Shown: piece after piece, positions 55,737 to 61,621 of the stretch
How positions within the stretch are numbered: position 1 is the stretch's first letter
How the letters are laid out: each line of letters begins with the position of its first letter
NCBI GenBank assembly: GCA_963675745.2
Contig: CAXXWX010000004.1
Span: 52,964-116,963, forward strand
Direction: 5' to 3'
DNA: 64,000 nt
From: Phycisphaerae bacterium
Lineage (GTDB): Bacteria > Planctomycetota > Phycisphaerae > UBA1845 > Fen-1342
The notes under the pieces: generated by a model
The model's database searches: none
The model's input: the letters and a program-made list of their open reading frames with translations, nothing else
What the model was told of the DNA's origin: nothing
Translations under genes and position numbers: made by a program

Positions 55737-55938
55737 ATCTGTCTCCAATAATGGTGGCTCGGAAAGCGAGAGCTTAGCGGGCCGCGGTGGCGCGGTACAG
55801 GCCGCCGACCGCCGATCGTCGCGCCGCGGAGGAACACGCGCACTCTCGCCTGATCGGTCTTGGTGCCGACGCATACGCCGCCCGGTGCCGCTGCCCGTCC
55901 CATGGCCGACGCCGGTGCCCATCCCGTGGCCGACGCCC

Positions 55939-56140
55939 CGCCCCGAAGGGGCCGCGGCGTTTTGCCACGGGTGCAGCGCAGCGGAACCCGTGGATGCGAT
56001 TGTTTCCCGATCACTCACCGCCCCGGTAGGGGCGACGGCCTCCCTCGCCCCTTCAGGGCGGAACCACTGTCGAGCCGGCATCCTCCCCACGGGTCCGCTG
56101 CGCTGCACCCGTGGCCATGCGCCAGCGCCCCTGCGGGGCG
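55939..56140. repeat. Composite palindromic element (REP/PATE-like)
   Basis: CGCCCCGAAGGGGC ... GCCCCTGCGGGGCG termini; long inner IR GCCACGGGTGCAGCGCAGCGG(A)ACCCGTGG and its reverse complement. Confidence 0.75.
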
Positions 56141-56399
56141 GAGGGCCGACATTGTCATTGGTTGACTCGTCGGTGTCTTGGCTGCCGGTAGCCGCAATAT
56201 CCAGGTGTTCATGCTGTATTGACGTCGGATGCGCACATACATCGGTAATGCCTGCCGGGGCTCGCGGGCGAACACGCCGGGGCGGTGGTGCATCCGATGA
56301 TAACATCCGCCGGATTGCGTAATCGATGGACCGGGCCATGTGCCGTATACTGTTTACAGGACCGAAACCGCACACATCCGGCCGGCACTGGAGTTCGTT

Positions 56400-57562: not shown

Positions 57563-57635
57563 GTGTGCCACGGCTCTGCGAGCCGTGTCTTAGCAACGCA
57601 GATTCTCCAAAGCAGCTCACAGAGCCGTGGCACAC
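57563..57635. repeat. REPIN-like inverted pair (GTGTGCCAC family)
   Basis: GTGTGCCACGGCTCTGCGAGCCGTG ... CAGCTCACAGAGCCGTGGCACAC. Confidence 0.7.
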
Positions 57636-57824
57636 GAATGTGGGACTAATTCGGATCACGTGGGACCGGCCTCTGGCCGGTCTGCCCTGGAAAAACGCGG
57701 GCCAGCAACGCGCAAAAATCATCCTGACATTTATTTGCCAACATCATCACAGGAGGCCACTCTTCGCGCAAGCGCTCATAAGCACAGTGTTGGCGCGAAC
57801 TTACGTACTATCTGAATGGCGTTC

Positions 57825-58037
57825 GGGACAGTCACCGATTGCTCATGCATGTTGCAGGACGATTCGGGAATGTATCGGCTTCGGTGGGCCACGCACCCGG
57901 CGGCTATTGGCCTCGGACAGCTTTCTCTGTAAGCTGGAGCGCAAACTCCGCGGGCGACTGCGCCCGCTGCCGATCGGCCGACCGCGGAAGGCGAAGCGAA
58001 AGGGCGCGAAATGAAGATGTAAACCGGTGACTGTCCC
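57825..58037 (+). mobile_element. 213-bp non-autonomous element, copy 1, with 13-bp terminal IRs and remnant Y1/RAYT transposase C-terminus
   Basis: GGGACAGTCACCG ... CGGTGACTGTCCC; encodes ..RRLLASDSFLCKLERKLRGRLRPLPIGRPRKAKRK*. Confidence 0.75.
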
Positions 58038-58047
58038 TATTATGCTG

Positions 58048-58195
58048 TTCTCTGTAAGCTGGAGCGCAAACTCCGCGGGCGACTGCGCCCGCTGCCGATC
58101 GGCCGACCGCGGAAGGCGAAGCGAAAGGGCGCGAAATGAAGATGTAAACCGGTGACTGTCCCTATTATGCTCTATTATGCTGTCCCTATTATGCT
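58048..58195 (+). repeat. Tandem duplication of the element's right 124 bp plus stuttered right ends
   Basis: 58048-58171 equals 57923-58046; further CTATTATGCT and CTGTCCCTATTATGCT copies to 58195. Confidence 0.9.
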
Positions 58196-58201
58196 CGAAG
58201 C

Positions 58202-58840
58202 ATGACATCAATTAGAGAGCGCACCAAGATAATCGCGGCCATCGTGCTCAGCGGCGCGGCCCTTGGCGTTCTTATGCTATTCGCACTGGTCCCCCCCGCG
58301 GAGATCCTATGCCACGTGATAGGCGAAACTGAGTATACACGCAATTACTCATGGTTCGCGTATTGCAAGGTTAGGCAGGGTATGACCCGCGCGGAGCTGA
58401 TTTCAACTTTGGGAGAGCCTTTCTGGGTGCAACGAGGCTGGGAGATCTGGTCATACAACAACCTGAACAGAGAAGAGGTGCGATTCGTTTTAGATCTGGG
58501 AGATGATGTCGACAAGGTTACCATCACCTGCAGCCGCGTCGAGACGCGACGGCCCCCCTCAGACCTTAAGAGCCAGACGCTGCAATCATGCGATGCGAAT
58601 CAGGAGCCTCGATGGCGAACGAAGCGGGACGGTGAACTGGCGGGATATCAGGGGGCAACAGCGGACGAAATCCGGGCTCGTTTTGGAGAGCCCCAGCATG
58701 TGCGCAAGGGACTACAGGACCGCGAGCTGTGGCGCTACTCCAGATCGCCGAGCGGCACCCACTACATTGCGCGAGTCGTGAGAGTGGACCCTGAGACTGA
58801 TAGAGTAATAGCACGGATGAGCTATGTGCACTGGGACTAA
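58202..58840 (+). CDS. Membrane-anchored protein with two SmpA/BamE-like 'GMT..E....LGEP' modules (cargo gene)
   Basis: N-terminal TM; VRQGMTRAELISTLGEP and GATADEIRARFGEP..WRYSRSP; codon usage less GC-biased than core genes. Confidence 0.7.
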   Translation: MTSIRERTKIIAAIVLSGAALGVLMLFALVPPAEILCHVIGETEYTRNYSWFAYCKVRQGMTRAELISTLGEPFWVQRGWEIWSYNNLNREEVRFVLDLGDDVDKVTITCSRVETRRPPSDLKSQTLQSCDANQEPRWRTKRDGELAGYQGATADEIRARFGEPQHVRKGLQDRELWRYSRSPSGTHYIARVVRVDPETDRVIARMSYVHWD

Positions 58841-58875
58841 CGCCAGGCCGCGCACAAGATCAGCGGTGCGATGCG

Positions 58876-59187
58876 TAGGTAACGGGTAGGTAACGAGGAC
58901 AGTCACCTGTTTCTCTAGGTAACGAGGGACAGTCACCTGTTTCTCATGCATATTGCAGAGGTAACGAGGGACAGTCACCGATTGCTCATGCATGTTGCAG
59001 GACGATTCGGGAATGTATCGGCTACGGGGGGCCACGCACCCGGCGGCTATTGGCCTCGGACAGCTTTCTCTGTAAGCTGCAGCGCAGGCTCCGCGGGTGA
59101 TTGCGCCCGCTGCCGATCGACCGACCGCGGAAGGCGAAGCGAAAGGGCGCGAAATGAATGTGTAAACCAGTGACTGTCCCTATTATG
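58876..59187 (+). mobile_element. 213-bp element, copy 2 (58968-59180), preceded by nested left-end stutters
   Basis: About 11 substitutions versus copy 1 by hand count; TAGGTAACG(A)GGGACAGTCACC left ends repeated at 58876, 58887, 58916 and 58959. Confidence 0.78.
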
Positions 59188-59373
59188 TCGACTGCAGAGA
59201 TGAACTGCTATAACGCATCGTGGGGTGAATGCTATGAGAGTGATGCGTGCAGGGACGCCGTCTGTGAGGTGGTCTCATCGGCGGTCTGTCCTATCGCCTG
59301 CCCAGCGGACGCCGTTGTAACATGCAGGACTGCTTTGGCAGGTGTTAGAATAATGTACGACTGCCCAGACTAG
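59185..59373 (+). CDS. Short Cys-rich ORF (possible orphan C-terminal tip of a larger protein)
   Basis: MSTAEMNCYNASWGECYESDACRDAVCEVVSSAVCPIACPADAVVTCRTALAGVRIMYDCPD; starts at the ATG in the element's TATTATG end. Confidence 0.4.
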   Translation: MSTAEMNCYNASWGECYESDACRDAVCEVVSSAVCPIACPADAVVTCRTALAGVRIMYDCPD

Positions 59374-59380
59374 AGCTAGC

Positions 59381-59887
59381 ATGAGTGCTTCCACCAGAAG
59401 ACTCCGATATATGCTCAACGTCATTGTGGCGCTAGTGTTTGTGCTCGTAGCCGCCGGATGGGGCGCGAGCATTTGGTATCGCCTGCTCGCAAAGCGCGAC
59501 GCGATTATTTCATTGAATGGCGGGCAGCTTGATATCATCTGGTATCGTGGGATACGAGAGCAAGAATACATCTGGTTTGTTGCCCCGCGCGAACAAGCAC
59601 GGGTGTTTGGCAAACATTTTCACGTGTCAGCGTCCTGGGCGGCCGGCTGTGGGAGGATTCACGTTCCGCTGTGGTTCGTCTTCATTTCAACAGGCGCGGC
59701 ATTCGCCGGTCTCTGCCCTTTCAGACAGCGAGCAGCACGTGAGGGCGAGTGCATGAGATGCAACTACAACCTTAGAGGAAACACAACTGGAGTGTGCCCG
59801 GAATGCGGCACACCGCTCAGGACGCAAGGGCGTACCGGTGACTTGCCTTATATAGCCTCAGATTCCAAAACAAATGCAGATGAGTGA
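59381..59887 (+). CDS. Membrane protein with C-terminal zinc ribbon (cargo gene)
   Basis: Two TM segments, VPLWF, CMRCNYNLRGNTTGVCPECG; atypical codon usage. Confidence 0.78.
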   Translation: MSASTRRLRYMLNVIVALVFVLVAAGWGASIWYRLLAKRDAIISLNGGQLDIIWYRGIREQEYIWFVAPREQARVFGKHFHVSASWAAGCGRIHVPLWFVFISTGAAFAGLCPFRQRAAREGECMRCNYNLRGNTTGVCPECGTPLRTQGRTGDLPYIASDSKTNADE

Positions 59888-60037
59888 GGACATGGGTCTC
59901 GGACAACATCGACAACGAGTTCGACGACTTCCAGGCCATCGACGTTGCCGGCCCGTACGCCGTCAGCGCCACGTACTTCAGCCAGCAGGGCGGCGTGACG
60001 GTTGATGAGTTTGCAACCGGGGCTGCTCCACAACTTC

Positions 60038-60090
60038 TGTGGCACCGGTTTCCAACCGGTGAGTCCCACTGGTTACAAACCAGTGCCACA
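60038..60090. repeat. REP doublet (GTGGCAC family)
   Basis: TGTGGCACCGGTTTCCAACCGGTG ... CACTGGTTACAAACCAGTGCCACA. Confidence 0.7.
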
Positions 60091-60196
60091 ACTCTGGGGT
60101 GGCTTCTCACGCGCTGAAGATGCCCACCGGCACGGTGCTGGAGAACTGCACAGGCGTGACGCCAGTACCACCGGCATGCCAGCGTGCGACAAAGGG

Positions 60197-61621
60197 CTAT
60201 GGCTCGAGCAGTATTTCTCCCCGGCCGCGGACGCGCAGGGCGACTGTTGATTGATCGCCGCCGGCGATCGTGTGGAAGACGGCGAGGCCCGGCGTGGGCA
60301 GGCCGTCGACTTGCTGGATCACGTCGCCCACGTGCAACCCGGCCCGATCCGCCGACGTGTGCGGTTGAACTTCCAATACCACCACTCCCCGTTGGTCCAC
60401 GCCATCATCGTCCGAACCGGCCACATCGCTGACCTGTCCCAGACGCGCGCCACGCCACAACAGGGCCTCGCCGCGCATCCAGGCAACGCGTACGCGATCG
60501 CGGCGCACGGCGGTGACCTGGGCCGCAAAACGCCGCCCGGCACGTTCGCAGATGATCTCGGCCTGCTGGCCAATGGGCGTGATTCCGACAAGGTCGGCGA
60601 ACTGGTCGGCCGTCAGGACGTCGCGGCCGGCGTATGCGACGATGATGTCGTCGACTTGCAGGCCGGCCTGATACGCGGGGCCGCCGACCTCGACATCGAC
60701 GATCTGCGGGCGTCGTTGCGGATGGGCCGTATCGCCGGTATCGACGTCGCGCAACGCCAGGCCGAGGTACGCGTGCTCGATCTGCCCGCCGGCCATGAGC
60801 GTGTTGATCGCCGCGCGACTGCTCGCGGTGAGCGGAATCGCGAATCCCACGCCTTCGTCCACGCCCGCGCGCGTATACACAGCGGTAACGACTCCGATCA
60901 CCTCGCCGCGGATATTCAGCAGCGGCCCGCCGGAATTCCCCGGATTGATGGCCGCGGTGGTCTGAATCATGTTTGTGTAGAGACGGTCGTCGTCCTCACC
61001 GAGTCCGGGCAGGCGGCGGCCGAGATTGGCAATCACGCCCACGGAGACGCAGGAGTGGCCGTCATCACCCAGGCCGTACGGGTTGCCGATCGCGACGGCC
61101 CACTGCCCGCGGCGCACGTCTTCCCACTCGCAGAATGTCGCCGGCTGCAACCCGTGGCGCGAGACCTCCAATACGGCCAGGTCGCTACGCACATCGGATG
61201 CCAAGACCGTCGCCGGAAGACGCTGGCCATCGTGGAAGACCACCTCGATGTCGGCGGCGGATTGCACCACGTGCTCGTTGGTCAGAATCAACCCGTCCGG
61301 GTGTACTACGGTGCCGCTGCCGTTGACGATGACGAACTGCTCGAAGTTCGTCGTCGGCGTCACCTCCAGCACACACCGGCGACTTACGCGAATGCCGACG
61401 ACGCTGGGGGCCACGCGGTCGGCGATTTCGGCGAATGCCCGTTGCAGCGTGTCCAGGTCGGGCGGTGCTGATGTCGGCGCAATCCGATCACGCGCCCAGG
61501 CCAGGTGCGCCACATCGACCAACGCCGCCATGACCAGCAACCCGACCGTCCAGGCGGCGTATTGGAATAAGCGTGCCCGCGTCCGATACCGGCGGCCGTG
61601 GGACTGACTCGCGCAGTTCAT
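60197..61621 (-). CDS. HtrA/DegP-like serine protease with two PDZ domains
   Basis: GSG, ILTNEHVV, SDLAVL, AIGNPYG, IQTTAAINPGNSGGPL, GVGFAIP, PDZ GL..GDVI. Confidence 0.92.
   Translation of the reverse strand: MNCASQSHGRRYRTRARLFQYAAWTVGLLVMAALVDVAHLAWARDRIAPTSAPPDLDTLQRAFAEIADRVAPSVVGIRVSRRCVLEVTPTTNFEQFVIVNGSGTVVHPDGLILTNEHVVQSAADIEVVFHDGQRLPATVLASDVRSDLAVLEVSRHGLQPATFCEWEDVRRGQWAVAIGNPYGLGDDGHSCVSVGVIANLGRRLPGLGEDDDRLYTNMIQTTAAINPGNSGGPLLNIRGEVIGVVTAVYTRAGVDEGVGFAIPLTASSRAAINTLMAGGQIEHAYLGLALRDVDTGDTAHPQRRPQIVDVEVGGPAYQAGLQVDDIIVAYAGRDVLTADQFADLVGITPIGQQAEIICERAGRRFAAQVTAVRRDRVRVAWMRGEALLWRGARLGQVSDVAGSDDDGVDQRGVVVLEVQPHTSADRAGLHVGDVIQQVDGLPTPGLAVFHTIAGGDQSTVALRVRGRGEILLEP

Follow-up and report, generated by a model that had tools for sequence, protein, structure and literature searches.

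TIRtrons are mobile elements in which the gene for a Y1-HUH transposase, the TIRYT, lies between terminal inverted repeats (TIRs) with a GGGGWSAS-like motif (Di Nocera et al. 2013, PMC3733652). They correspond to TnpA-Y1 subclass 2.1, which was found in 14.9% of the sampled species and is characterized by the motifs NHVH, W[EQ], YIELNP and SS (Quentin et al. 2018, PMC6006769), and to RAYT group 1, the largest RAYT group (Bertels et al. 2017, PMC5581495). A C-terminal helix-turn-helix (HTH)-like extension has been reported for the 20 subclass 2.1 TIRYTs; the original TIRYT definition does not require one. The sister HUH enzyme TnpA-REP, the RAYT of REPtrons, cleaves and strand-transfers single-stranded DNA with low site specificity, and the authors of that study propose that it sequesters flanking genes, so that the idea of capture has already been raised for a sister RAYT (Ton-Hoang et al. 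2012, PMC3333891). For RAYT group 1/TIRYT, our literature search found no substrate reaction, biochemistry or host benefit, and no report of end stutters or gene capture; subscription papers and supplements lay outside that search.

Here, we analyse a stretch of 64,000 nucleotides from a Phycisphaerae bacterium (assembly GCA_963675745.2, contig CAXXWX010000004.1; hereafter the window), in which 213-bp repeats alternate with small genes between positions 57563 and 60149. An earlier, sequence-only reading of this region had proposed a new, integron-like but integrase-free array, in which an HUH transposase acting in trans captures or shuffles foreign genes at hairpin-ended elements. We find that the repeats are internally deleted TIRtrons, and we propose, with a probability of roughly 0.55, that the TIRYT joins its end repeats to loosely chosen DNA, resulting in duplication, deletion or gene capture. 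Gene-less TIRtrons bracket foreign genes in the window, and in many further bacteria the same end repeats enclose other single genes; the ends are therefore likely to be points at which genes are joined. In the following, C numbers denote contigs of this genome, G numbers genomes of relatives, L numbers loci of relatives and metagenomes, and X numbers read runs.

The 213-bp repeat is an internally deleted TIRtron

The repeat occurs in three full copies that are 93-96% identical, two in the window (94.8% identity between element 1 and element 2, the latter at 58968-59180) and a third at C5:1404-1616. Copy 1 consists of a left end core, the last ~50 codons of a transposase gene with one frameshift, and a right end. 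Its terminal 13-bp inverted repeats are perfect (GGGACAGTCACCG/CGGTGACTGTCCC), and the true ends extend about 7-8 nt past this core and are repeated as nested stutters (58045-58193, 58878-58959). With both ends retained, the transposase deleted and several copies present, the element follows the pattern of miniature inverted-repeat transposable elements; it is non-autonomous, as had been claimed for it. The basic C-terminal tail said to be encoded in each element is intact in element 1, whereas element 2 has a stop in the tail and D for G.

The parent transposase expected to share these ends exists. Full-length relatives at C15:67076-67835 and C28:1674-2433 encode, between GGGACAGCCACC ends, a 227-aa Y1 transposase (PF01797, 41.8 bits against a cut-off of 23). 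The mini-element is 72% identical to the 3' part of the C15 element over 150 nt (77% at the amino acid level over 35 residues) and is derived from a sibling element that is absent from the present assembly. One contig of run X1 continues the left end at 57841 with other interior sequence, which may mark the beginning of the real full-length parent. We refer to these elements as family A. Its two enzyme genes (C15:67129-67809 and C28:1727-2407) are 98%-identical copies despite their NHTH motif, and the enzymes of this clade end in a basic GRPRK tail; Pfam returned no HTH family at E<=0.01 in the enzyme's C terminus, although a Pfam miss is weak evidence.

The same end repeat accompanies the 80 best relatives in GTDB, whose record titles are mostly Planctomycetota, and a strict 16-nt end pattern, which gives 0-1 matches per 1.12-Mb shuffle, finds both ends around 38 of them. 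The GGGGWSAS motif appears in the repeat as AGGGACAG (7/8) in the window and as GGGGACAG in many relatives. At the protein level, the HUH motif NH[VIM]H is present in 80/80 relatives and YxExNP in 75/80, while the C15 and C28 enzymes carry NHTH, WQ, YIERNP and WSS; their HUH motif is thus atypical, since NHTH replaces the NH[VIM]H of the relatives. What had been presented as a new system belongs to the named TIRtron/TIRYT group, as far as the cited part of its description goes (PMC3733652). Mini-elements of <=300 bp number 35 in the 78 metagenome loci, and the exact pattern of the present mini-element had 0 matches in the JGI metagenomes.

A second TIRYT family (B) is represented in the genome by a full element at C24:43621-44372 and by 22 end matches in 11 clusters. 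Solo family-A left ends in a ~195-bp tandem duplication are located at C11:8700-9130, downstream of a lower-GC operon and with neither a right end nor Rhs sequence. The repetitive extragenic palindromes (REPs) on both sides of the region had been listed as parts of the system; both pairs come from genome-wide families (66 and 29 matches), which rules them out as components.

Stuttered ends and variable genes between facing ends

The ends are stuttered. The TATTATG end occurs four times to the right of copy 1, and the end of copy 2 likewise occurs four times to its left; each repeat has 1-3 flank-matching nucleotides, followed by a jump back into the element. The right 115 bp of element 1 are duplicated at 58048-58162, and one contig contains a further variant joint (58169>57897). 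Such repeats also occur among the relatives: an outer-arm repeat of >=8 nt is found at 28 of their 97 ends compared with 12 of 624 control sites, and one of >=10 nt at 19/97 compared with 2/624, so that end-anchored repeats are about 15-fold in excess over controls. In model B for TnpA-REP, as given in the cited part of that paper (PMC3333891), the DNA is nicked, the 3'-OH is extended, and a second nick and rejoining yield a unit duplication. The flank-matching nucleotides after the repeated ends fit the prediction of this model and therefore support end processing. Single ends folded no better than shuffles (z +0.9 to -1.7 for the copies folded), which for these copies does not support the idea, formed by eye, that each end is a small hairpin, nor the hairpin ends first described. 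In copy 2, positions 13-44 agree with copy 1 and positions 57-153 with the C5 copy, while its own stutter retains the bases of the C5 type; this points to conversion between copies that took place once the stutter had formed.

But are genes between such ends a peculiarity of the window? We compared 80 GTDB and 78 metagenome loci (158 in total; 43 of the 121 metagenome loci are short, 360-1319 bp, and stand outside the main counts). A right end followed by a left end at a distance of 301-3000 bp is found in 9/80 GTDB and 7/78 metagenome loci (16/158); the 43 short loci add one 572-bp right/left interval and no new strain pair. In 12 of 15 cases, the GC content of the enclosed interval is below that of the remaining locus (mean -0.097, p=0.008, not corrected for kinship), and the gene-sized intervals of L163, L174 and L194 are filled by open reading frames (ORFs) to 0.80-0.88. 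L194 and L292 hold a single gene between two minis, the same arrangement as that of the first cargo gene (cargo 1) in the window. In L097 and L289, the facing ends enclose an Rhs core plus tip, and the Rhs core of L289 is severed by ends on both sides, with non-Rhs DNA beyond. In the same locus, at L289:1790-1870, a right end of family A and one of family B are stacked directly, and an Rhs core fragment comes next. L174, with three solo ends, and L290 contain series of units, each made up of gene(s) plus an end. In L291:1981-5100, the order is permuted: the tail of the transposase gene and a right end come first, then 3 kb with small genes, then a left end and the start of the transposase gene. 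Such an order would be expected if a circle had opened within the transposase gene or if two elements had each lost the outer half.

Family B has a comparable arrangement within this genome. Four inward-facing pairs each surround a single gene (C17:100821-101563, C26:667709-668658, C15:275628-277068 and C6:169471-171503), the contents being a membrane protein, a low-GC ORF, a PEP-CTERM protein and a rhomboid. Several family-B ends are fused on their inner side to one arm of the common REP. At C6, the 3' part of a PEP-CTERM gene is duplicated beside the left-type end (169300-169400, 171149-171440), across the enclosed rhomboid gene, and a rhomboid homolog in G018 has no such ends. Empty sites for the C26, C15 and C6 cassettes could not be shown in five relatives, which are too distant (C17 was left out).

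The genes at such ends differ between strains. L163 and L174 are the same locus, with 92% identity on both flanks, and part 6 nt outside the end core, where they carry different genes (281 aa, GC 0.28; 229 aa, GC 0.29); at the next solo end, the gene pairs differ again. L163 also carries a 142-bp end-anchored duplication like that of the window. In L198, the mini and one flank are common to L168 and L186, while the other side consists of a stutter and foreign DNA (the contig ends before the far flank).

For the window itself, an alternative allele is present in the reads: one contig each in X1 and X2, from one sample, joins 57729 to 59910, skips 2180 bp and brings a family-B end straight onto an Rhs fragment, without the window's 2.2-kb insert. 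This joint and other continuations in the reads place the left breakpoint of the strain-variable insert at the family-B end 57715..57737; two other continuations of 57729 are found, one of them a stutter. Because the upstream module of REP plus end occurs only once in the assembly and the Rhs tail is connected to htrA by a contig of 96% identity, the simplest reading of the short allele is an orthologous allele of a related strain. Cargo thus differs between strains at such ends, as had been suggested. In the window, the break between the two forms lies at a family-B end and not at the 213-bp elements. Another X1 contig near 57841 joins the IS4 end to a different target. X2 covers the flanks and has no contig over either cargo, which we do not count as evidence. 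A joint of 58193 to 58878, that is, loss of cargo 1 alone, is in no contig, an uninformative result either way as contigs drop rare variants.

Across species, the gene after SPFH differs in each of the five relatives examined, and in three same-genus genomes the SPFH and htrA matches lie on different contigs; these two points leave no cross-species empty site. At C5, the sequence to the right of the mini does not continue the Rhs gene on its left. The continuity check at C28 has no intact comparator; non-restoration is therefore shown for C5 only, and the judgement for C15 and C28 is by eye.

Anatomy of the locus and origin of its cargo

The features of the region are compiled in the table. 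Elements, duplicated right half, cargo ORFs (both on the + strand) and REP pairs had all been placed correctly. The short-read contigs of the best-matching run span 57691-57854, 58180-58875, 58846-58997 and 59129-59976 and thereby bridge four element/flank junctions without substitutions, so the repeats are not an assembly artefact. Two or three small indels separate the assembly from these contigs (CCTT is absent after 57729, G after 58896). The runs come from one study, and since the best run is possibly the source sample, this comparison is an assembly check and not independent biology.

Table. Features of the cargo region in the window (positions of the 64,000-nucleotide stretch)
Feature	Position	Strand	Remarks
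REP pair	57563..57635	.	bystander, genome-wide family; arm with 66 matches at <=2 mismatches
Solo outward-facing end, second TIRYT family (B)	57715..57737	+	22/22 identity to the C24 right end
IS4-family left-end remnant	57745..57824	.	fused to element 1 at GGGAC of its end repeat
Mini-TIRtron copy 1 (family A)	57825..58044	+	core 57825-58037, outer arm to 58044
Right-end stutter	58045..58193	+	three nested duplications, TATTATG at each end, 2-3 flank-matching nt at each start
Cargo 1, 212 aa	58202..58840	+	N-terminal membrane anchor, BamE/SmpA-like motifs
Left-end stutter of copy 2	58878..58959	-	three nested partial ends
Mini-TIRtron copy 2	58960..59187	+	core 58968-59180; mosaic of copy 1 and C5 copy
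Cys-rich 3' gene remnant, 8 Cys in 61 aa	59188..59373	+	severed by right end
Zinc-ribbon membrane protein, 168 aa, C-terminal CxxC...CPECG	59381..59887	+	
Rhs N-terminal fragment	59893..60149	+	94-95% identical to C5 (C5:6825-6710, 6698-6658)
100-bp REP insertion splitting the Rhs fragment	60009-60108		joint 60008>60109 in run X2
REP doublet	60038..60090	.	second genome-wide family, 29 matches; bystander inside the Rhs fragment

The cargo is foreign, in agreement with the sequence-only reading. The GC content at third codon positions is 0.64 and 0.57 in the cargo ORFs versus 0.80-0.86 in SPFH, htrA and recA, and cargo 1 has no homolog in 400 genomes of the class with the query used. Cargo 1 is one whole gene with TIRtron ends on both sides. 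Its Pfam match to BamE (E=0.008) is below the cut-off, Atlas BamE clusters at 0.88-0.89 provide a lead only, and one database homolog is 68% identical; an immunity-like function may be considered.

The right-hand cargo has a different background. The order of Cys-rich 3' remnant, zinc-ribbon membrane gene and Rhs N-terminal fragment is the same as in an Rhs array on C5, and G010 has the same layout, with a zinc-ribbon gene before an Rhs fragment. The right-hand cargo was torn from an Rhs toxin-module array and is no free-standing cassette. The Cys-rich ORF described before is present but has no start of its own outside element 2. Judged by position, it probably represents an Rhs toxin-domain tip. 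Those at C5 are likewise Cys-rich (19/177, 18/154) and lie upstream of a zinc-ribbon gene, and a search for the remnant found no homolog and no longer version. The short 'gene-like fragment' noted further downstream is likewise present and is the copy of an Rhs N-terminal segment that houses the REP doublet.

Searches with the zinc-ribbon gene gave motif-level matches only. Genome-wide, 42 sites encode membrane proteins with a CxxCGYxLxG...CPECG zinc ribbon, a subset of which follow Rhs tips here and in G010. Such genes lie within 2 kb of Rhs cores in 6/42 cases, compared with 1.2% of random positions, and their position suggests an unannotated immunity-like family. The other family-A copies adjoin Rhs coding sequence on the left. 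The small gene on their right belongs to the barstar family at C15; at C5 and C28, it is an unannotated gene for a membrane or secreted protein. Rhs adjoins four of the five family-A clusters of the genome, the solo ends at C11 being the one without. Among the 80 relatives, 6 loci contain Rhs pieces: 4 strong cores, 1 weak core and 1 repeat region read by translation. In 50 of the relatives' genomes, 209 matches in 249 Mb correspond to an expectation of 0.61 cores, compared with the 4 strong cores observed (Poisson p=0.004); this estimate mixes two profiles and is biased by short contigs.

The IS4 remnant is 76% identical to an end in G018 that adjoins an IS4 transposase (NF033592, 177 bits; cut-off 115), and it also matches G006. 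The junction GSCRTTC|G[GT]GAC at the end-repeat core recurs in more than ten unrelated loci (window 57745-57829, L079:3333, L090:7936 and L108; further L109:444, L101, L055, L087, L102 and L126); where it can be identified, the partner is the end of an IS4-family element. Both junction orientations are consistent with IS4-family insertion into the 11-bp core GGGACAGTCAC, and no complete IS4 insertion with both target copies was seen among these loci. IS231A is known to target GGG(N)5CCC in the ends of Tn4430, which resembles the IS4-type junction at the end core. Outside the cargo region, an inverted repeat with 58-nt arms at 55931-56148 belongs to a multi-copy family like the repeats beside a Y1 gene at C26:449165.

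A model for end-mediated gene joining and its place among known systems

How could such a locus arise? In the model we favour, TIRYT made elsewhere would act in trans and nick single-stranded DNA just outside the end core, and the nicked end would be rejoined to a second, loosely chosen site. A partner inside the element would give an end-anchored duplication, one further along the flank a deletion, and foreign DNA a captured gene. To close the far side, a second end could act on the opposite strand, which would give the order right end, gene, left end seen for cargo 1; alternatively, homologous recombination could do so, as may have happened with the Rhs fragment on the right. The locus would have been built stepwise: a family-B end was probably joined to a piece of Rhs array carrying two family-A minis around one gene, with IS4 insertion into the left end of copy 1 and recombination between the copies as further steps. 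Selection might then keep small membrane or immunity-like genes and lose toxin domains. The family identity, the stutters, the recurring architecture, the different cargo of two strains at one junction and the related allele without insert are observed; the chemistry, the acting enzyme, the direction of gain or loss at the window site and the immunity role are what we infer.

Several observations weigh against this model. The great majority of GTDB loci (71/80) have no right/left pair, and most full elements have no cargo; beside full elements, GC drops only slightly (-0.03), and this dip has faded by 600 bp (n=71). Among the intervals, 4/16 are poorly filled by ORFs (0.18-0.37) and 3/15 are not lower in GC. 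Moreover, two adjacent symmetric elements produce the right/left order by default, and architecture alone is therefore no proof of capture. The C15 and C28 enzymes have NHTH, whereas the middle residue of the motif is hydrophobic in 80 of 80 relatives; identity of the mini to the C15 and C28 elements is no higher than 72%. Apart from the bias of the Rhs estimate, 74/80 loci contain no Rhs piece, making the Rhs link real but minor. Just one full same-locus pair with different cargo was found, and no cargo with its ends was observed at two sites. The breakpoint of the short allele is a family-B end and not the 213-bp element, and gain and loss are indistinguishable there. Its contig (207-220 bp per run, aligned at likeness 85-88) is 88% and 92% identical on the two sides and comes from one sample; for these reasons, it may be a paralogue in another strain.

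The alternative that survives best, which we regard as possible but doubtful, treats the ends as passive scars. TIRtrons and minis would insert or hop locally where accessory DNA tolerates them, for instance in Rhs orphan arrays; the junctions would be due to ordinary deletion and to recombination between copies, and the enclosed genes would have pre-existed or arrived by other routes. The site is indeed littered with the remains of three REP families and two TIR families and with an IS4 end, copy 2 is mosaic through recombination, Rhs arrays are fragmentary even without these elements (L128), and most relatives lack cargo. However, passive insertion leaves unexplained why the sequences of L163 and L174 part no more than 6 nt from the end core and then carry different genes, why one family-B end has several continuations in a single study, why end-anchored repeats are in 15-fold excess, and why Rhs pieces are severed on both sides with non-Rhs DNA beyond (L289).

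Closer to the original proposal, TIRYT could excise circles of right end, gene and left end and reinsert them in order, so that cassettes are stored and shuffled. The serial units of L174 and L290, the gene-sized intervals of L163, L174 and L194 and the permuted L291 layout, which fits a circle, speak for such an array. We nevertheless consider it unlikely: none of the cassettes turned up at a second site or in another order, and no circle was present among the short-read contigs; cargo is often severed mid-gene (window 59188, C5, L289), junctions are imprecise and stuttered, and the window has one whole gene between ends and no series. Less likely still are ordinary integron cassettes or a plain Rhs island into which the elements were inserted later. 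The right-hand cargo is a piece of an Rhs array, and attC-looking sequence lies, by eye, beside some relatives, but the genome (91% complete) contains no integron integrase over the cut-off (best TIGR02249 match 84 bits versus 265), and cargo 1 is bounded by ends on both sides. An attC after cargo 1 was ruled out by fold comparison and pattern search: RYYYAAC-N35-130-GTTRRRY, a simple pattern and not a covariance model, is absent from both strands of 57641-60200. That the repeats are an assembly artefact, for which the small indels could be quoted, is next to impossible given the four bridged junctions without substitutions, the differences between the copies and the recurrence of stutters in many genomes.

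A broader version of end-mediated joining, which we put forward only tentatively, is that TIRYT and its dispersed ends constitute a widespread integrase-free gene-acquisition system, with the solo end as a reusable docking site. If so, the Y1-HUH enzyme would ligate incoming single-stranded DNA and duplicate the end, and the arrays built in this way would hold toxin-immunity, toxin-antitoxin and surface genes and differ between strains. Bacteria would then have a way to acquire genes that integron finders overlook, and the small enzyme behind it would connect one fixed, short site with loosely chosen single-stranded DNA. The locus and its relatives define the substrate concretely, as the end repeat including its outer arm. 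They show a footprint that can be read, in the form of nested duplications anchored at the end with 1-3 flank nucleotides per joint, and the output, foreign genes attached at the end, can be tested.

Finally, we would like to place the locus among the known systems. With the TIRtrons, it shares the Y1-HUH gene between inverted repeats, the ends dispersed as solo copies, dimers and clusters, and the motifs NHxH, WQ, YIExNP and SS; the end-anchored duplications, the genes between facing ends and the strain-variable cargo are not described in the cited parts of the TIRYT papers (PMC3733652, PMC6006769, PMC5581495), and the clade here ends in a basic GRPRK tail without a Pfam HTH match. The REPtrons have a sister HUH enzyme with the transfer activity outlined above (PMC3333891, in the part cited). 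The substrate here is of another kind, a terminal inverted repeat in place of the GTAG-type hairpin of REP-BIME or REPIN repeats, and the cargo is foreign and gene-sized. The elements do not match REPtrons or REPINs, as they lack hairpin-forming ends with a GTAG-type foot and the NF047646 score is below its cut-off (62-64 versus 80).

IS91, ISCR and Helitron elements capture genes by one-ended rolling-circle transposition, with two unlike ends and larger transposases. HUH chemistry, a fixed end joined to a variable point and the pick-up of neighbouring genes are common to both, and capture by these elements is named in the cited part of the TnpA-REP study (PMC3333891). Here, the two ends resemble each other and both show stutters, and the transposase is a Y1 enzyme of 227 aa. 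Rhs orphan toxin-tip/immunity arrays are an established concept. As at C5 and in G010, the window combines a putative toxin-tip remnant, a downstream membrane gene and the next Rhs fragment; in contrast to such arrays, the module here is cut from its array and bounded by TIR ends, and the putative immunity of the downstream gene is deduced from position. Integrons and recombinase-associated acquired immunity arrays collect small low-GC membrane, toxin-antitoxin or immunity-like genes at a repeated site. Such genes are gathered here in the same way and vary between strains, while an integron-type tyrosine recombinase and attC are absent here and the junctions are imprecise and often cut genes. 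If the docking-site reading is true, TIRtron ends and their enzyme would form an HUH counterpart of integrons, which would provide a host function for the largest RAYT group.

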